Of a stretch of DNA of 64,000 nt, positions 25,261 to 53,166 are shown in pieces. The position numbers were made by a program, and so were the translations under genes. The notes beneath the pieces were generated by a model, which worked only from the letters and a program-made list of their open reading frames with translations, ran no database searches and had not been told where the DNA came from. The stretch lies in sequence record OV754623; one strand, written 5' to 3'. This stretch comes from Escherichia phage UGJNEcP1. The number at the start of each line of letters is the position of its first letter. The first letter of the stretch is position 1.

Positions 25261-26361
25261 TTACGCTGTGAAGATTTTATCCCACATCGCAACAACTGCA
25301 TCTCGGTTATACTTCTTCCATACTGCTTCAGCACGTTTAACTCGAGCTTCGTATGTGTCAGTGAATTCTAATACAGCTTTTGTGTAAAGCGCAACTACTT
25401 CTTTCTTAGGAGTAGAGGAATCAATTTCTACACGCACAGTATCTGGGTCGTATTCGAATGTCGCATGAGGATAATCCTTAAAAACTAACTGGATTACAGG
25501 GACACCTTTAGAGATGGCTTCAATAGAACTATTCTCTACAGTACCTGTGTCAGGACACGTATTAATAAGTGCTTTAGCTGTTTTAAGACGTTCCATAATT
25601 TCACTGTGTGGAGCATCAATAATAACAGGATATTTAGCTGGTGGCGCCCATTTGCTTGGACAGTATCCTGCACCATTTTCGCCTAGTGCTTTAATCGCTT
25701 CAAGAGCAACATCAGTACGACGCATTTTAGTGTCATAACGTTGTGCACTAATAATCAGATCCGTCGCCGGAAGAACTTCTGGCTTTTCAGTCAAACAAAT
25801 AACCGGATAATCTTCGGCTTCAAACAACGGATTTGCTCGCCAATAATCATAATCAATTTTGTCAGTCAGACCTGAAGTCATATAACAATATTTGCGTTCA
25901 AATTCACGGAAGGCTTTAGTAGGAGCATAACTCTTACCACCATTCTTATGAATTTGAATAGTCTGGTCCCAAATTTGAACAATGCCACGAGATACCGGTT
26001 CAAATGGTGTTGCCATAAAATTCTTATGAACTTTAGAGAGACCTGCGTCTTTAATTGCCTGAACGGTTAGTTTAGTCGGTTCCATAGTAACAACAAAATC
26101 GTATTCATGGATGCCGGCTAGTTCAACAATCTTACGAGCCATAGTATAACTCATACCTAGACTGAATTTAGTCAGATGACCAACAGGATGATGATTAACT
26201 TTCCAATCACCAAATGTGTCATTATCAAAACCGATATAATCAATATCAGCACCGATGGACACAAGATATTTCAACACGTTCAAATGAACCGCTTCAAGAC
26301 CACCTTGTACACGGTCAGGATTAAATGGGACTGCACGAGATGGGATAAACATAACTTTCAT
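25261..26361 (-). CDS. putative GT4-like GT-B glycosyltransferase; candidate DNA sugar transferase
   Basis: 366 aa; N-terminal RVQGGLEAVHLNVLKYLVSIG resembles the GT4 GG.E..V..L...L...G motif; C-terminal TGTVENSSIEAISKGVPVIQ resembles the GT4 EGFG...EAMA.G.PVI donor-binding motif. Confidence 0.65.
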   Translation of the reverse strand: MKVMFIPSRAVPFNPDRVQGGLEAVHLNVLKYLVSIGADIDYIGFDNDTFGDWKVNHHPVGHLTKFSLGMSYTMARKIVELAGIHEYDFVVTMEPTKLTVQAIKDAGLSKVHKNFMATPFEPVSRGIVQIWDQTIQIHKNGGKSYAPTKAFREFERKYCYMTSGLTDKIDYDYWRANPLFEAEDYPVICLTEKPEVLPATDLIISAQRYDTKMRRTDVALEAIKALGENGAGYCPSKWAPPAKYPVIIDAPHSEIMERLKTAKALINTCPDTGTVENSSIEAISKGVPVIQLVFKDYPHATFEYDPDTVRVEIDSSTPKKEVVALYTKAVLEFTDTYEARVKRAEAVWKKYNRDAVVAMWDKIFTA

Positions 26362-46615: not shown

Positions 46616-47164
46616 TTAACGAGCCCATTTAATGATTTCTGTAATCAAATTATTACGTTCGCTTGCATTAAATCCTATAACTTTGTTAGAACCATCATGA
46701 TTAAGTAATTGATACGTTTGGATTTTGTTATGAATTGCAAACTCTTCAAAATGTGAAATGACTGTATTAAAACCGAATGAAGACAAAGTAATAAGGTCGT
46801 CTTCAAAACTTTCAGTCATTTCGTTACGTGTTAAAATAATTGTGAACACATCATGGTTTTGGCAAAGACGAACATAATCCTGTTCATAAACGTCAAGAAC
46901 CGAGTCCGCATCTTGTCGAATACGTCCATAAACCCAGTTACTAATATATCCACGGTCTAATAGATAAATCTTAGTAGGGTCTAAATAATTCAACATCGTT
47001 TCGAAACAGCCAACTTCATTTCGAGACTTAACATCGAAACGCCCATCAACTGTTCGTTTAGGGAAATCAATCTTTACATATCTTTCACTAATTTCCATTA
47101 TATCATTAATGAAAGTTGTTTTACCAGCATTATCCGGCCCGTCTACTAAAATAATTTTAGCCAT
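46616..47164 (-). CDS. P-loop kinase (thymidylate/deoxynucleoside-kinase-like fold)
   Basis: 182 aa; Walker A GPDNAGKTT and downstream LLDRGY (DR motif); occupies part of the T4 beta-gt slot. Confidence 0.6.
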   Translation of the reverse strand: MAKIILVDGPDNAGKTTFINDIMEISERYVKIDFPKRTVDGRFDVKSRNEVGCFETMLNYLDPTKIYLLDRGYISNWVYGRIRQDADSVLDVYEQDYVRLCQNHDVFTIILTRNEMTESFEDDLITLSSFGFNTVISHFEEFAIHNKIQTYQLLNHDGSNKVIGFNASERNNLITEIIKWAR

Positions 47165-47165
47165 T

Positions 47166-48065
47166 TTATTCCTCGATTACGACATCTTCGTATTTAGGTA
47201 TATTATACGGTGAAGAAATTAAAGCATTAAAGTAGATGAACTCACCAAGACCTGGATGGAATACTTCTTCAGGATTTTCGAAATATTGAATCTTCGGACG
47301 TCCTTTAAGAATTTGATAGTACTCAGTTTTAGTTGGATTAAAAATTCGAATCAGCGCTTCTTCAGGATACTTATTTCTGTCGAAACTATTATTTGGATCA
47401 GTTATATAAAGCGGTTGACCTAATTGAATTGCGCATTCAACCACTTGTTCAAAACGATAGCATGGGTCACTAATTCGAAATGGATGAAAAATACCATCTA
47501 GATGAATAGGAGCCAAATCACCTACAAGACGCTGCATGACGGAAGGACGTATAACTTTCTGCGTTACGATAATCTTATTACCATCTGCACCTGCGTTAAC
47601 CAGCACTTCTTTTTGACGTTCATTCAACATAGTAGTTTGAAGTGAACGATTAACAGACAACATGTCGGTTTTTAAGAATTCATCAATATAAAAACGTGGT
47701 TTATTAGGGTCTGCAGTGATATTGAAATTGAATTCTACATCAAAAGCGCCGTCATATCCAGTGATATCTGTGATTAGAAAATCACAATCATAATAAGCAA
47801 TTAATGAATCAACCACAAATTCATTTTCAGACCAAAAATATTTACGAGTGTTATACGCGTTATCTTTATACCATAATGGAACAAACTTAAATTCTGGGAA
47901 AAGACGTTCACATTCTTTAATATCAGATGCATTACGTGGATATGTAATCACATCACCCGGATTAGCACGGTGCAAATGAAGTTGGAAGTTGCCATCCTTA
48001 AGGATAGCATACTGTCCAGTTTCATAAGACCGCATACTCAAGATAGGTACGCGGAAAATAGCCAT
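47166..48065 (-). CDS. hypothetical protein in the beta-gt slot (candidate transferase)
   Basis: 299 aa; no confident motif; positional replacement of T4 beta-glucosyltransferase; stop/start abutting neighbours. Confidence 0.5.
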   Translation of the reverse strand: MAIFRVPILSMRSYETGQYAILKDGNFQLHLHRANPGDVITYPRNASDIKECERLFPEFKFVPLWYKDNAYNTRKYFWSENEFVVDSLIAYYDCDFLITDITGYDGAFDVEFNFNITADPNKPRFYIDEFLKTDMLSVNRSLQTTMLNERQKEVLVNAGADGNKIIVTQKVIRPSVMQRLVGDLAPIHLDGIFHPFRISDPCYRFEQVVECAIQLGQPLYITDPNNSFDRNKYPEEALIRIFNPTKTEYYQILKGRPKIQYFENPEEVFHPGLGEFIYFNALISSPYNIPKYEDVVIEE

Positions 48066-48781
48066 TAGTCAAGGAATCCTTTAACATAATCAAAATCACG
48101 TTCAAACACATGGGCACTTACCATGGTATGAGTATAATCACCAACTTCTACACCACATTCGTTAGCGATATAATGAAGTAATTTTCCTTGGAGATAAAAA
48201 TCCAACTGCATAACAACAGCACAGTTCTGGGAACGCATATGACAGTGGGTATAAAGCTTACCATCACGAATATAATAAGTCACTGAGTCAGTACATGGAT
48301 ATTCAAGCGTTTCGTCCGAATCAAGCAAAGCCTGATCAGAACTTTCTAGAATTTGGAACACAACTCTTCGGGAGTTAGGCTTCTCTTTAAGTTCTTTTAG
48401 AAGAGCTGGTAATTGAGCCGCAATGCGAGGGCCATAGAAAGTGTTGAAGTTCGCCGGCAAAACATCTGATTTTGGTTTAGAAATAAATTTAGCGACATTA
48501 GGATATGCCTTAAACGCTTCTTCTGCGTTGGTACCACCAGAAATCATAAACTTCCAGAAGTCTTCGGCATATTCATAAGAGATGCGGTTAATACGTGGGT
48601 CGGTCATTTTGAATGATGATGGAGTGTCAACAACCACTGTCATAGACCCAATTTCATTACAACGTCCAATACGAGAATCAGTTACGAATTCCGGGTTTTC
48701 TAAAATTTCACGATTGACTGCTTTAAATGCGGCTTGAAAATCTGCGGCTTTGATATATTTCATTGTGTTATGTTTTCCCAT
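48065..48781 (-). CDS. 42: thymidylate-synthase-fold pyrimidine C5-modifying enzyme, probable dCMP hydroxymethylase gp42
   Basis: 238 aa; YPCTDSVTYYIRDGKLYTHCHMRSQN has the catalytic-Cys and R/S motifs of the TS/dCMP-hydroxymethylase fold; synteny. Confidence 0.65.
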   Translation of the reverse strand: MGKHNTMKYIKAADFQAAFKAVNREILENPEFVTDSRIGRCNEIGSMTVVVDTPSSFKMTDPRINRISYEYAEDFWKFMISGGTNAEEAFKAYPNVAKFISKPKSDVLPANFNTFYGPRIAAQLPALLKELKEKPNSRRVVFQILESSDQALLDSDETLEYPCTDSVTYYIRDGKLYTHCHMRSQNCAVVMQLDFYLQGKLLHYIANECGVEVGDYTHTMVSAHVFERDFDYVKGFLD

Positions 48782-48823: not shown

Positions 48824-49063
48824 TTATTTGAATTTCTTGACAATGTTGATATAACGTAAAGCTTCAGCATCGATACTTCCAAGAACACTATGAAGAAATG
48901 CATCAGCGTAATATTCTAGTTGAACAGGTTCTTTAATCACTTTAGCCGCTTTAGTTTCAAACAGGCCCATCAGGGCCTTTTTAAGAATTTGTTCGTTAGT
49001 GTTCAGTTTAATAGTCAAAATCTCTTCGTTAAGTTGGTGGTTAAAAGTTTTTCTAGAAATCAT
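48824..49063 (-). CDS. hypothetical small protein
   Basis: 79-aa ORF with ATGA-type overlap with the upstream gene. Confidence 0.45.
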   Translation of the reverse strand: MISRKTFNHQLNEEILTIKLNTNEQILKKALMGLFETKAAKVIKEPVQLEYYADAFLHSVLGSIDAEALRYINIVKKFK

Positions 49064-50220
49064 TCCGGGTACCTCAAAGCGTCATCAGAGTTAGTTATAT
49101 CAATAATAGATATAGAGTTTTCTGCTAACCCGTTTTTAGATAATTGACGTTTATAATATCTTTCACAATATGTACACGTCGTCCCGCAGATTTCATTAGC
49201 ACAATCGAAATCTGGATGTCTGAACCACCTTTTTTCTAAAAAGCCATCTAACAAAGAGGTTTCAATATTTACTGTATGTGAAAACTCAGTTTCGTTTTCA
49301 AGAGTGAAAATAGTCTCTAAAGGCTTCCACAGTTCTAACAAATTACCTTCAAACTTTTCAGAAGCGTATGCTTCAAGAACTTTCAAAATGTAGTCTGTGC
49401 TACCTGTACGTCCTGAAACTTTGAATTGAGTGATACCAATATCATTATAAAGTTTCAAATCTTGAGGACGAACAAAACGAGTTCTCAACCAGTTAAATGG
49501 GTCTGTATCACGAGCTTTAATACAGTGCTGCATAGGATATCCGTTTAAGGATTTAGCATCATCGGCTGTAACATCAGTACTATGGAAAATATAGCAAGAG
49601 TCACGATAGCTACAATGTGTTGTATACCCTTTACCAGCATTAGAACAGAACTCATTTACAAGAACTTCAAATATTATATTGTTCTTATTGCAAAACTCTG
49701 CTGCACGCTTCAGGAAAGAAACTGAACGGTTCTTATGAATTCCACAGCAGACCTTTTTGATATTATATTGGTCATGCAAGTATTTGATTTGAGTTACAGC
49801 ATCGACATGTAGAATTGTTGAAACTTCAATCTCAATGTCTTTATTGACTTCACGAACAATTTCCATAACAACAGGGTTAGCGATAGTAATACGCCATACG
49901 CCTATTGACCAAAGATACTGAACATAATCCTGAATAGCTTTCTTCTTCCACTCAACTAGTTCTCTTTTTGAACCAGGATTTATCGTGTTGAGTGTATAGT
50001 TAAAGCAAATACCTAATTCGTTACAACGTTTAACGTAATCTTCTAACATCTTTTTGTCAACGTCAGGAAGCCTAAAATCAGGTCTGGCTGCTACAAAAGC
50101 CATTTCTCTTGTAGAGCCGTATACTTCATTTATCAAGCTATTAGGATAAGTTTTATTGAGCTCTACGATTTTATCAAGAAGAGCTAAATCAAAATTCGTT
50201 CCGATTTTAAAAGTATTCAT
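49060..50220 (-). CDS. U32-family (collagenase-like / Fe-S hydroxylase-like) enzyme candidate
   Basis: 386 aa; NYTLNTIN and VLVNEFCSNAGKGYTTHCSY resemble U32 TIM-barrel motifs (partial match to the E.F..G..C....G.C..S signature); C-terminal C-x4-C-x3-C-x2-C cluster. Confidence 0.45.
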   Translation of the reverse strand: MNTFKIGTNFDLALLDKIVELNKTYPNSLINEVYGSTREMAFVAARPDFRLPDVDKKMLEDYVKRCNELGICFNYTLNTINPGSKRELVEWKKKAIQDYVQYLWSIGVWRITIANPVVMEIVREVNKDIEIEVSTILHVDAVTQIKYLHDQYNIKKVCCGIHKNRSVSFLKRAAEFCNKNNIIFEVLVNEFCSNAGKGYTTHCSYRDSCYIFHSTDVTADDAKSLNGYPMQHCIKARDTDPFNWLRTRFVRPQDLKLYNDIGITQFKVSGRTGSTDYILKVLEAYASEKFEGNLLELWKPLETIFTLENETEFSHTVNIETSLLDGFLEKRWFRHPDFDCANEICGTTCTYCERYYKRQLSKNGLAENSISIIDITNSDDALRYPE

Positions 50221-50274: not shown

Positions 50275-50679
50275 TTATTGTAGATTCGGTTTATATGATT
50301 TAAATGTTTCGAATTCGCCTTTATTCATAAGAGCTTTGAATTCGTCAGGACGCATAGCTTTGTCGTCGATAATCCAATCATATACTGGTTTATGTGTTAG
50401 CAAATTATGGTACTTCAAGCCAATGTTTGCCAAGTTCTGAATCAGACTTGGGAGAATGTCAATTGCTATACGACCAGGACCTACTGACTTCATACCGCGA
50501 GCAGTGTAAAGCGTTATGGTATGCCCTGCATCATACAGGGCATTAATGGCAGACACCATTTCGACGTCTGGTTTGAAGTTCACGTAATCACGATTGTTAT
50601 TCCACTCTGTTATACAATCATCGACATCAAAACAAAGATTAAGCATGTTTTCTACACGGTGCATTAGATTCGTTCCCAT
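50275..50679 (-). CDS. HAD-superfamily phosphatase-like protein
   Basis: 134 aa; LCFDVDDCIT (DxD motif I), TLYTARG (motif II), IIDDK (motif IV). Confidence 0.55.
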   Translation of the reverse strand: MGTNLMHRVENMLNLCFDVDDCITEWNNNRDYVNFKPDVEMVSAINALYDAGHTITLYTARGMKSVGPGRIAIDILPSLIQNLANIGLKYHNLLTHKPVYDWIIDDKAMRPDEFKALMNKGEFETFKSYKPNLQ

Positions 50680-52349
50680 TGATGAGTGATATCGCCACCG
50701 ATTGGACGATAAGAAACACCAGTTTCTTTATCAGTTAGTACCCATTTACCAGGATTTTTTGTAATCAGAGTAGCCGTTACAGGCTCTGCTACGTCATAAC
50801 TAATAGAGCCGTCTTGAAGTACACGGCCCATGTTACGTAATTGCTTAGTCAGAAGTTCCATACCTTTATAATATGCGGCTACCGCTTTAAGTGGATTATT
50901 CTTGAAATAACCACCTAATGCAATCCAGATAATTGCCACCGCCAAATGATGATACTCGTTAAACGAACTCATCTTTCCATATTTGTAAATTAATGGATTG
51001 ATGTTAATAGTCACATTACAAGTTGTTTCATCAATAGTAAACTGTCCCCAGGTCGGATTAGCATTGAATTCATCATAACCTGAAACAGCATAAAGCACTT
51101 TAGCTTCATCGTACAATTTTGGCCCGTAAATCTTGGTTTCGCCAAAATATCCACGAGGGTCGATAAACTTGACTTCGCCGTTATCAGTAATCATAGTATT
51201 ACTGAAGTTCGGGTCACCGTGAATAACAGAGTACTGTCCCTGAGAACGGTTATGATAACGAATAAGGTGTTCTAAAGCTTGTTTCAGCATTGGCTTCAGA
51301 CGTCCAATCTTAGTGTAGTTCACGTGTGTGATTTTACCAAATGAATCAATCAATGGTTGAATGCTTTCACAACGATCAATAACTTTCGTATAGAATTCTT
51401 TAGTGAAATCACGACGAACAGTTTCAGGACTTACAAAATAAGTGTCTGTGCTGAATTTCAGTGCATCTAAAATTGCATCAACAATTTGTGGACGAGCAAG
51501 ACTTGATTTGGATTTAATATATTCAAATGCCGGCTTACCTTTAATGCGTTCCATTTCAAAGTTATTTTCATTAACAGAAACTAACTGAGGAACTGAATCT
51601 GATTTCACTTTAAGATACCATGAAATCTCATCTTTCTGAAGAGCTCGGCCCTGTTCGGTTAATGCGAATTTAGTTACAGTTTCTTCACCAATTTCAACTG
51701 CATTAAAACTACGATTAAGTTCACGAACTTCATGAGCCTTTTCAAGTTTAGGCATATCACCTAAATCAATTAGATTCATAAGCTCTGATTTATTGAATGC
51801 ACTCCCGTAAAGGAATTCTACAAAATCACGTCCTTTGCAATATTCGTGAATTTCCTCATCAGTAGAACCCATGTAGAATTCCCAGTCTTTGAACTGATAA
51901 ATTCCTACAACATTACCACCTGTTGAACCTACGTTAGTGATATTTTCACCGTCGAAATTATATCGACATTCGTCACCCTTAACATAGATTGCGTTAACAT
52001 TCCAAGACCATGAACCAAAATCAGGAATAATATCACACCAGTTAACAATTACGTTATGGCCGTCTAAATCTTTGTGTAATTTAGCAAGAGCATAAGCAGA
52101 ACCATACGCTTCATCAACTGTACGAATAGTCACATTGAACCCTTCTTGCTCACAATAAGCTCGAACAGTTTCAGCAAATTTTGAATGAACTACTACAATA
52201 ATTTCATCTGCGCCAAGGTCAGAATAAATTGTATACAAATTGCTCAGAATAGTGTCTTGTTTATAGTTAACAAGCACCTTAGGAATATGATGCGTTATTG
52301 GATACAAACGAGTTGCCAGTCCAGCACCAAGAATAACAGCTTTTTTCAT
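50664..52349 (-). CDS. bifunctional sugar-1-phosphate nucleotidyltransferase / APH-like sugar kinase
   Basis: 561 aa; N-terminal MKKAVILGAGLATRLYPITHHIPKVLV (nucleotidyltransferase G-loop); C-terminal VIHGDPNFSNTMI...FIDPRGYFGE (HGD...N and ID motifs of the aminoglycoside/choline-kinase fold). Confidence 0.75.
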   Translation of the reverse strand: MKKAVILGAGLATRLYPITHHIPKVLVNYKQDTILSNLYTIYSDLGADEIIVVVHSKFAETVRAYCEQEGFNVTIRTVDEAYGSAYALAKLHKDLDGHNVIVNWCDIIPDFGSWSWNVNAIYVKGDECRYNFDGENITNVGSTGGNVVGIYQFKDWEFYMGSTDEEIHEYCKGRDFVEFLYGSAFNKSELMNLIDLGDMPKLEKAHEVRELNRSFNAVEIGEETVTKFALTEQGRALQKDEISWYLKVKSDSVPQLVSVNENNFEMERIKGKPAFEYIKSKSSLARPQIVDAILDALKFSTDTYFVSPETVRRDFTKEFYTKVIDRCESIQPLIDSFGKITHVNYTKIGRLKPMLKQALEHLIRYHNRSQGQYSVIHGDPNFSNTMITDNGEVKFIDPRGYFGETKIYGPKLYDEAKVLYAVSGYDEFNANPTWGQFTIDETTCNVTININPLIYKYGKMSSFNEYHHLAVAIIWIALGGYFKNNPLKAVAAYYKGMELLTKQLRNMGRVLQDGSISYDVAEPVTATLITKNPGKWVLTDKETGVSYRPIGGDITHQWERI

Positions 52350-52390: not shown

Positions 52391-52534
52391 CTAGTTAAAG
52401 CATTCATACTTTGCTTGTAGTCCAATCATAATCCATCCGATTATAAGAGTCGGAATCATTACCGGAGCCGTTAAGCTCCAGTAGATAGTCATGACAAGCA
52501 TCAATAGTAAAAGTCCTATTGTTATTGCTTTCAT
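52391..52534 (-). CDS. small hydrophobic peptide
   Basis: 47-aa ORF MKAITIGLLLLMLVMTIYWSL...; ATGA overlap with the SIS gene stop; below track cutoff. Confidence 0.3.
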   Translation of the reverse strand: MKAITIGLLLLMLVMTIYWSLTAPVMIPTLIIGWIMIGLQAKYECFN

Positions 52535-53166
52535 TGTTCGCCTCGTAACATGGCACCTAGTGCACCGCCTGGATGGAACTTAAGGAAGTCATTAGAGGTA
52601 AATCCACGTTCAGACGAAAGGTTGATAGCAAACGTATCGATAAGCGCTAACAACAATGTAGTGGACATAGTCGGAGCCAGAGAATTCTCATCAACCTCTA
52701 CCGCGATGCCTGTACAGAAAGAGTAATCAAAAAGGGCTTCATTTTCTTGCGGAATGTCTGGGTTACAATGCAACAGAATCTGTTTGACGTTCGGTCGAAT
52801 CATTTTAAGATGCTTAGCCACGCCTATCATTTCTTCAGTTTTACCAGAACGACTAATATGAATCAACACATCATTAGGCGCAATGAATCCTGCGTCACCG
52901 TGAGAATAATGTCCAGTGTTCAAGTACATACTCGGGATACCGAGTGAAGCAAATGTCTCAGAAGCTTTAGTTGCAATATTAGCATTCTTACCAACACCTG
53001 TAATAATTACTCGGCTTTCATAATTACTAAGTCCAGGGCGTCGAAGAGTTTCTAGAATAGCATTATAACGAGCAGGGTTTTGACTAATTACTTTGGCCAT
53101 AGCGGCCAAAGAAGAAGCTTGTTTTATGATTGCGTCAATAGCGATAGTAATAGGAGTAGTTTTCAT
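52531..53166 (-). CDS. SIS-domain sugar-phosphate isomerase (arabinose-5-phosphate isomerase / GmhA-like)
   Basis: 211 aa; ITGVGKNANIA and HISRSGKTEE are canonical SIS phosphosugar-binding motifs; no CBS domains. Confidence 0.75.
   Translation of the reverse strand: MKTTPITIAIDAIIKQASSLAAMAKVISQNPARYNAILETLRRPGLSNYESRVIITGVGKNANIATKASETFASLGIPSMYLNTGHYSHGDAGFIAPNDVLIHISRSGKTEEMIGVAKHLKMIRPNVKQILLHCNPDIPQENEALFDYSFCTGIAVEVDENSLAPTMSTTLLLALIDTFAINLSSERGFTSNDFLKFHPGGALGAMLRGEQ

Follow-up and report, generated by a model that had tools for sequence, protein, structure and literature searches.

The stretch of DNA analysed here, 64,000 nucleotides from Escherichia phage UGJNEcP1 (OV754623; hereafter the window), carries on its minus strand an open reading frame (ORF) of 561 amino acids (aa) that raises the question of which sugar a phage protein joining two sugar-activating domains would activate, and by which route. 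A preliminary description of the locus had proposed that this protein (50664..52349) fuses a sugar-1-phosphate nucleotidyltransferase with a kinase of the APH fold, and that it turns a free sugar directly into a nucleoside diphosphate (NDP)-sugar. The fusion is borne out by the ORF, its motifs, a match to Pfam PF00483 and structural matches, and an NDP-arabinose donor for the modification of phage DNA agrees with our reading, whereas the free-sugar salvage route is probably wrong and the presumed rarity of the gene did not hold. We favor instead, with a probability of roughly 0.85, a role in which the protein performs two steps, not adjacent ones, on a de novo route that leads in four steps to uridine diphosphate (UDP)-D-arabinofuranose.

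A Probable Mosigvirus Counterpart of AfhE

The ORF runs from an ATG at 52349 to a TAA at 50666..50664, and was assigned as a bifunctional kinase/nucleotidyltransferase gene from the reading frame itself, PHROG 4098, a match to phage RB69 and the literature. All the motifs quoted in the preliminary description are present: GAGLATRL (aa 8-15), PKVLV (aa 23-27), HGDPNFSN (aa 377-384) and IDPRGYFGE (aa 396-404). That this is a real gene, and no chance ORF, is shown by an end-to-end match of the protein to PHROG 4098 (E 5.5e-295), by tblastn, which finds the gene in 373 phage records (hosts including Escherichia, Acinetobacter, Klebsiella, Vibrio and others), and by 314 homologues in a protein database at E <= 1e-5. 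It is carried by every Mosigvirus match as well as by those 373 records, and the suggestion that it is unusual for a T-even-type phage was mistaken. Base composition over the gene region is unremarkable relative to the window.

At the nucleotide level the gene is 100% identical to that of Escherichia phage UGJNEcP2, 98.5% identical to RB69 ORF052c+053c and 95-99% identical to about 150 more Mosigvirus records. The genes around the module follow the RB69 arrangement (gp41, gp40, uvsX, then the module, gp43, regA, 62, 44, 45), and judged by sequence the window is a Mosigvirus. Lee 2026 equated RB69 gp52:53 (ORF53_52c) with AfhE of Escherichia phage HY126 (PMC13326640), and through this link the 561-aa protein appears to be the Mosigvirus counterpart of AfhE. 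It shares with AfhE and RB69 gp52:53 the architecture of an N-terminal nucleotidyltransferase and a C-terminal APH-fold kinase in one polypeptide of ~550-570 aa. It also shares their neighbors, namely genes for an arabinose-5-phosphate isomerase, for a HAD phosphatase resembling AfhF, for a 5-hydroxy-dCMP synthase related to ThyA and for DNA arabinosyltransferases. No substantive difference was found, the sequence comparison being with the RB69 gene. HY126 is not among the phage records listed from the nucleotide and tblastn matches, and a search of the PDB by sequence and by fold returned no solved AfhE structure.

The protein and its role have been published between 2018 and 2026, so that the observation made in the preliminary description is correct but not new, and its significance has likewise been recognized. 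Thomas 2018 re-sequenced the region in RB69, whose DNA carries arabinose, and found ORF053c and ORF052c to be one 561-aa gene that is expressed as a protein of ~64 kDa (PMC6024577). The same authors found its domain structure to be complex, with matches to NTP-transferase and to pyrophosphotransferase, and put the protein forward together with the SIS protein as candidates for UDP-arabinose synthesis (PMC6024577). Lee 2026 modeled RB69 gp52:53 and assigned both domains from structure, the N-domain matching MurU and LicC and the C-domain matching 3ham, choline kinase and glucosamine kinase (PMC13326640). The preliminary description had also seen in the protein a direct biochemical handle on the identity of the donor; the arabinose donor stands, but this handle has already been used in print (PMC6024577, PMC13326640).

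Public records present a different picture. Sampled entries for the protein cluster (15 named members listed) read "hypothetical", "GlmU" and "NTP transferase", the GlmU form being "bifunctional protein GlmU", and a further public label is "mannose-1-phosphate guanyltransferase". PHROG 1238 and many phage entries in GenBank give the HAD phosphatase the wrong label "phosphoheptose isomerase". Annotation errors are spreading in the public records, and the names in the sampled database entries have not caught up with the literature.

The N-terminal Nucleotidyltransferase Domain

The N-terminal domain (aa 1-205; 51735..52349, minus strand) was delimited by Pfam, a family profile and Foldseek. PF00483 (NTP_transferase) is matched over aa 3-99 with 39.1 bits against a gathering cut-off of 21.2, and 34 of 41 homologues match it as well. 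The G-x-G-x-x-R-(L) loop is present as G8-A-G10-L-A-T-R14-L15 (52305..52328, minus strand), followed by K24, the conserved lysine that in this family binds the phosphates of the NTP. Across the 41 homologues, which are 29-72% identical, G10, R14, K24, D106, D195 and D198 are invariant. Below the cut-off, NCBIfam matches of this domain are all to sugar-1-phosphate or other small-molecule nucleotidyltransferases, with no match above it. A single-sequence search of the PDB gave LicC as the best relative (E 2e-5); with a 41-sequence family profile, HddC, the heptose-1-phosphate guanylyltransferase, came first (E 1.7e-13), followed by LicC, GDP-mannose pyrophosphorylases and RmlA.

An AlphaFold (AF2) model built with the family alignment has a mean predicted local distance difference test (pLDDT) score of 92.9 and a predicted template modeling (pTM) score of 0.88. 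The domain has the Rossmann-like alpha/beta/alpha fold of nucleotidyltransferases, with a Foldseek probability of 1.00 against HddC, MurU, RmlA, GalU, LicC and GMPP. Sequence and model together identify the N-terminal half as a sugar-1-phosphate nucleotidyltransferase of the RmlA/GalU/HddC/MurU type. The sequence offered no reliable determinant of nucleotide specificity, and the predicted substrates, UTP and arabinofuranose-1-phosphate, are taken from the HY126 biochemistry as summarized in PMC13326640.

The first 31 residues (MKKAVILGAGLATRLYPITHHIPKVLVNYKQ; 52257..52349, minus strand) are 100% identical in the homologue of Acinetobacter phage Stupor, although the whole proteins are only 56% identical. 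On this comparison the NTP-binding loop region appears to be under unusually strong constraint.

The C-terminal Kinase Domain

Sequence searches with the C-terminal half gave only marginal matches, and structure prediction was therefore required. Single-sequence and profile hidden Markov model (HMM) searches of the PDB matched at the catalytic loop only (COQ8B, RIO2, APH; E 0.01-1), and the window protein scores below the Pfam thresholds for Fructosamin_kin (17.1 versus 22.4), EcKL (16.2 versus 22) and RIO1. Pfam APH (PF01636 clan) is matched by 16 of the 41 homologues, with a best E of 6e-10. With the full-length model the top 50 Foldseek matches are all nucleotidyltransferases, and a separate model of aa 206-561 was built for comparison of the C-terminal fold. 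This model (pLDDT 89.5) has APH(2'')-IIa (3ham) as its best Foldseek match (E 1.6e-7), after which come ethanolamine kinases, choline kinases and LicA, and its matches also include the C1 sugar kinases maltokinase, methylthioribose kinase and NahK. All of these lie at 9-20% identity and define the fold only. The structural matches of both domains agree with those of Lee 2026 (PMC13326640).

The kinase domain so delimited by predicted structure and motifs covers ~aa 206-510 (50820..51734, minus strand). Its H-x-D-x4-N loop reads H377-G-D379-P-N-F-S-N384 (HGDPNFSN; 51198..51221, minus strand), and the metal-binding aspartate is found in I-D397-P-R-G (IDPRGYFGE; 51138..51164, minus strand). None of K227, E241, G378, D379, N384 and D397 varies among the 41 homologues, and at least 90% of these have H377; K227 lies in a predicted strand (224-229) and E241 in a predicted helix (232-247), which makes them candidates for the ATP-anchoring lysine of the N-lobe and its partner glutamate. 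R213, R326, R399 and K417 are invariant too and are candidates for holding a 5-phosphate. The bilobal fold is nearer to small-molecule kinases than to protein kinases, and structure comparison did not place the domain with protein kinases or with antibiotic kinases unrelated to sugars, either of which would have told against the preliminary description. The predicted structure settles the fold of the C-terminal half as that of an APH/choline-kinase-type small-molecule kinase. Fold comparison alone cannot pick the substrate, and D-arabinose-5-phosphate, phosphorylated at C1, is predicted from the HY126 biochemistry summarized in PMC13326640.

Beyond the kinase domain lies a small, beta-rich tail of ~50 aa (aa 511-561; 50667..50819, minus strand; pLDDT 65-84). 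Judged by trimmed homologue lengths, the proteins of T4-like phages have this tail and the shorter distant homologues lack it. It may be a docking element, with the phosphatase or the glycosyltransferases as partner.

A Predicted Four-step Route to UDP-D-arabinofuranose

UDP-D-arabinofuranose is not a normal metabolite of Escherichia coli, and the phage must therefore bring its own pathway. In the route that we propose, the SIS isomerase encoded upstream would convert host ribulose-5-phosphate to D-arabinose-5-phosphate. The C-terminal APH-fold kinase would then transfer a phosphate from ATP to the anomeric C1-OH and so form arabinofuranose-1,5-bisphosphate, from which the translationally coupled HAD phosphatase would remove the 5-phosphate. 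The N-terminal nucleotidyltransferase would finally join the resulting arabinofuranose-1-phosphate to UTP, yielding UDP-arabinofuranose and pyrophosphate, and two phage arabinosyltransferases would afterwards place the arabinose on 5-hydroxycytosine in DNA. The protein would in this way supply two of the four steps, and the logic would be that of de novo synthesis through a bisphosphate, as in nucleotide-heptose synthesis, rather than salvage of a free sugar. Phosphorylation of C1 while C5 is still phosphorylated would keep the pentose in its furanose ring; we infer that a start from the 5-phosphate locks the ring in this form, so that a furanosyl donor could be made without a mutase.

The identity of the substrates, UTP as the nucleotide and the sequence of these steps are taken from published work on homologues. 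AfhE of HY126 is a kinase of D-arabinose-5-phosphate as well as a UDP-arabinose pyrophosphorylase, and AfhF is a Mg-dependent phosphatase that converts the 1,5-bisphosphate to the 1-phosphate, both according to the summary of He 2026 given in PMC13326640. The acceptor base has been revised from hydroxymethylcytosine to 5-hydroxycytosine, made by a ThyA homologue (PMC13326640), a revision supported by PMC13390438; RB69 gp48 is reported as the 5-hydroxy-dCMP synthase that makes it (PMC13326640). What we observed directly for the window protein and its relatives is the ORF, both folds, the conservation of catalytic residues, the way in which the genes are ordered and overlap, and the domain fusions described below. 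The fusions, together with the conserved linkage of isomerase, phosphatase and nucleotidyltransferase/kinase, argue that all four activities serve one route.

Such a route matters to the phage because arabinosylated 5-hydroxycytosine protects the phage DNA against both restriction enzymes and nucleases of CRISPR systems. Inactivation of TH1_060, the 54% identical homologue in Shewanella phage Thanatos, nearly abolished propagation, making that homologue essential for phage growth (PMC12838424).

Comparison with Other Sugar-activating Systems

The predicted route is identical in its chemical logic to the synthesis of nucleotide-activated heptose, in which a sugar phosphate is likewise isomerized, turned into a bisphosphate by phosphorylation at C1, stripped of its distal phosphate and nucleotidylated. 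The enzymes there are GmhA (an SIS isomerase), the kinase HddA or HldE, GmhB (an HAD phosphatase) and the nucleotidyltransferase HddC or HldE. HldE, like the window protein, fuses the two non-consecutive kinase and nucleotidyltransferase steps, though with different folds. HddA has a GHMP fold and HldE combines a ribokinase-like kinase domain with a cytidylyltransferase-like nucleotidyltransferase domain, unlike the APH/choline-kinase fold of the window kinase. The heptose pathway differs further in its substrate (heptose-7-phosphate versus pentose-5-phosphate) and in the destination of its product, which is lipopolysaccharide or capsule rather than DNA.

An APH-fold kinase paired with a minimal RmlA-like nucleotidyltransferase is also found in AmgK-MurU, which salvages N-acetylmuramic acid and N-acetylglucosamine, and in LicA-LicC, which converts choline to CDP-choline. 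The domains of the window protein have MurU, LicC and LicA among their best matches in structure. These pairs are separate proteins that catalyze consecutive steps on a free substrate, whereas the window protein is fused and is predicted to act on a sugar phosphate with an intervening phosphatase step.

A nucleotidyltransferase and an anomeric sugar kinase share one polypeptide, leading to an NDP-sugar, in FKP (L-fucokinase/GDP-fucose pyrophosphorylase) and in the Leishmania arabino/fucokinase-pyrophosphorylase, which makes GDP-D-arabinose. The FKP-type kinases have the GHMP fold, act on free sugars and lead to pyranose GDP-sugars, and the kinase half of the window protein is probably not homologous to them. 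The context differs as well, for the window gene lies with a coupled HAD phosphatase and an SIS isomerase, both of which are fused to it in homologues. 5-Methylthioribose kinase (MtnK), at 16-18% identity, acts on a substrate whose 5-substituent is a methylthio group and not a phosphate, and is without a nucleotidyltransferase domain.

Alternative Assignments

Several points weigh against the bisphosphate route as we have drawn it. Taken alone, the window protein falls under the Pfam cut-off for every kinase family, and the order of steps comes from the PMC13326640 summary of the HY126 work, not from the window protein. A paper of June 2026 calls the arabinose precursor unclear (PMC13390438), and the Thanatos homologue had no pyrophosphorylase activity with xylose-1-phosphate and any NTP, xylose being, in our reading, the wrong sugar (PMC12838424). 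Table 1 of PMC13326640, moreover, labels the other order, with the phosphatase first and the kinase on free arabinose: gp51 "dephosphorylates Araf5p to Ara" and the C-terminal domain "phosphorylates Ara to Araf1p". The pathway implied by these labels is one of salvage, in which the phosphatase would free D-arabinose from arabinose-5-phosphate, the kinase would act on C1 of the free sugar and the nucleotidyltransferase would then make the NDP-sugar. The kinase fold family does contain free-sugar anomeric kinases (NahK, maltokinase, methylthioribose kinase), and MurU, among the closest structural relatives of the nucleotidyltransferase, partners the free-sugar kinase AmgK. We nevertheless regard this order as unlikely. 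The logic of isomerase, kinase, HAD phosphatase and nucleotidyltransferase is established for GDP- and ADP-heptose, and HddC is the best profile match of the N-domain. Since free arabinose is mostly pyranose, salvage could give a furanose product only with the help of a mutase or through an unusual selectivity, and neither is evident in the module by Pfam, NCBIfam or PHROG. The text of PMC13326640, updated after the HY126 biochemistry, gives Ara5P -> Ara-1,5-P2 -> Ara-1-P. The SIS isomerase and coupled HAD phosphatase that flank the gene, the four-domain fusions and the AfhE/AfhF biochemistry (PMC13326640) all tell against the free-sugar substrate of the preliminary description.

Two assignments that would remove the protein from arabinose activation, or from activation altogether, were rejected on gene context, the chemistry of RB69 DNA, the nucleotidyltransferase fold and motifs, and published negative tests. 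The structural matches to LicA and LicC could be taken to indicate a fused pair that activates choline, ethanolamine or a different sugar as a CDP or NDP conjugate, unrelated to arabinose; matches at such low identity speak to the fold and not to the substrate, however, and the gene lies among an arabinose-5-phosphate isomerase, a phosphatase and DNA glycosyltransferases, has homologues fused to SIS and HAD domains, and belongs to phages in which arabinose has been found chemically on the DNA (RB69 and Mosigvirus; literature including PMC13390438). We hold this to be highly improbable. Hardly more credible is that the protein is itself a DNA glycosyltransferase, as might be thought from the placement of its N-terminus in the GT-A superfamily by CDD (PMC6024577) and from the retention of TH1_060 as a glycosyltransferase candidate by the Thanatos authors (PMC12838424). 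The G-x-G-x-x-R...K loop is that of nucleotidyltransferases and not of glycosyltransferases, as are the Pfam family and the matches in structure, scores against phage glucosyltransferase HMMs reported in the literature are poor, and dedicated GT-B arabinosyltransferases are encoded separately. In vitro, the Thanatos protein moved no sugar to DNA, dCMP or dCTP (PMC12838424).

The Arabinose Module and Its Gene Neighborhood

The genes from 53166 to 46616 lie on one strand and are tightly packed. Upstream of the kinase/nucleotidyltransferase gene is the homologue of RB69 gp55, a SIS-domain protein (52531..53166, minus strand) assigned as arabinose-5-phosphate isomerase from Pfam SIS, from NCBIfam (KpsF/GutQ, E 2e-32; KdsD, E 7e-31) and from PHROG 5670, "arabinose 5-phosphate isomerase". 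Downstream is the HAD-type phosphatase, a homologue of RB69 gp51 (50275..50664, minus strand; ORF to 50679) assigned from NCBIfam and the literature, with the capsule-biosynthesis phosphatase family TIGR01689 as its best match (E 4e-13). It probably starts with the ATG at 50664; as read from the sequence, this codon and the TAA that ends the kinase/nucleotidyltransferase gene overlap (TAATG). RB69 gp51 was paired with AfhF of HY126 by Lee 2026 (PMC13326640), and the window phosphatase is predicted to strip the 5-phosphate from arabinose-1,5-bisphosphate.

Further downstream, all on the minus strand, are a Peptidase_U32-family gene corresponding to RB69 gp50 (49060..50220), a 79-aa ORF known from the ORF list and PHROG (48824..49063), and a thymidylate-synthase homologue that is the counterpart of RB69 gp48 (48065..48781; Pfam Thymidylat_synt). 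They are followed by a putative DNA arabinosyltransferase 1 of 299 aa, corresponding to RB69 gp46:47 (47166..48065; ORF, PHROG 3891 and PMC13326640 Table 1), and by a thymidylate-kinase-like nucleotide kinase, RB69 gp45 (46616..47164; PHROG 761 and PMC13326640 Table 1). Arabinosyltransferase 1 is a single intact ORF in the window, whereas in the GenBank entry of RB69 it is divided between ORF046c and ORF047c; the intact frame therefore supports the published view that the RB69 split is a sequencing error. A putative DNA arabinosyltransferase 2, the homologue of RB69 ORF003c (364 of 366 aa identical; literature), lies apart at 25261..26361, also on the minus strand. Scanning 46.0-56.2 kb for promoters and terminators was uninformative, with counts not above those in shuffled sequence (35 versus 37.4 expected and 5 versus 5.6, respectively).

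The U32 gene matches Pfam PF01136 (E 7e-11), and its sole NCBIfam match is a weak one to UbiU (E 9e-4). RB69 gp50 has been labeled a "sugar or heterocycle reductase" (PMC13326640). The U32 family includes O2-independent hydroxylases such as RlhA, which makes 5-hydroxycytidine in 23 S rRNA (PMC5727448), and also TrhP, which makes 5-hydroxyuridine in tRNA (PMC6599085), and UbiU/V (PMC6747719). By analogy, the U32 neighbor might give an anaerobic route to 5-hydroxycytosine that backs up an O2-dependent ThyA-like synthase; a literature search on phage U32 hydroxylases found no paper linking a U32 gene to such a route.

Between the isomerase and the kinase/nucleotidyltransferase gene, in the RB69ORF054c region, translation gives a strongly hydrophobic ORF of 47 aa (MKAITIGLLLLMLVMTIYWSLTAPVMIPTLIIGWIMIGLQAKYECFN; 52391..52534, minus strand), whose start ATG overlaps the isomerase stop (ATGA). 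The RB69 annotation holds just a 36-aa version, ORF054c. A small membrane peptide would in this way lie inside a module for soluble sugar-nucleotide synthesis.

Distant Homologues and Multi-domain Fusions

Distant homologues (30-35% identity) are larger fusions (L001 8001-10781, P0084; L006/L007 8001-10679, P0118; L008 8001-10361, P0106). Proteins of ~890-955 aa, P0084 being a four-domain example, carry the Pfam domains HAD, SIS, NTP_transferase and kinase, in that order, in one polypeptide, and other forms are arranged as HAD-NTP_transferase-kinase or NTP_transferase-kinase-cupin. The contigs with these fusions also carry giant-virus hallmark genes (Rpb2, Rpb10, MutS+HNH, dUTPase, PIF1, RING). 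The fusion genes adjoin those for NDP-sugar epimerases and dehydratases, GT2 enzymes and UDP-GlcNAc 2-epimerase, a neighborhood that looks glycan-related rather than directed to DNA modification. The four-domain fusions on giant-virus-like contigs are a new observation here; the literature searched makes no mention of giant-virus fusions of this kind or of giant-virus arabinose pathways. These multi-domain relatives offer a lead, and we put forward tentatively, as a possibility that we would not yet favor, that giant viruses use the bisphosphate route to supply their virion glycans with an NDP-pentofuranose, of arabinose or of a related sugar, and that this pathway shares its origin with the DNA-arabinosylation module of phages. 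One member of the group, P0091, comes from a eukaryote transcriptome set.

The same module as in the window recurs on an unrelated jumbo-phage-like metagenomic contig of 350 kb (L004 5135-10997), where the order is SIS, GT2, nucleotidyltransferase/kinase, HAD and a ThyA homologue. An arabinosyl-type cytosine modification module thus probably extends beyond Straboviridae. The nucleotidyltransferase/kinase homologue on this contig is 519 aa long and is without the C-terminal tail, and the contig also carries SegE-like, EndoIV-like and gyrB genes.

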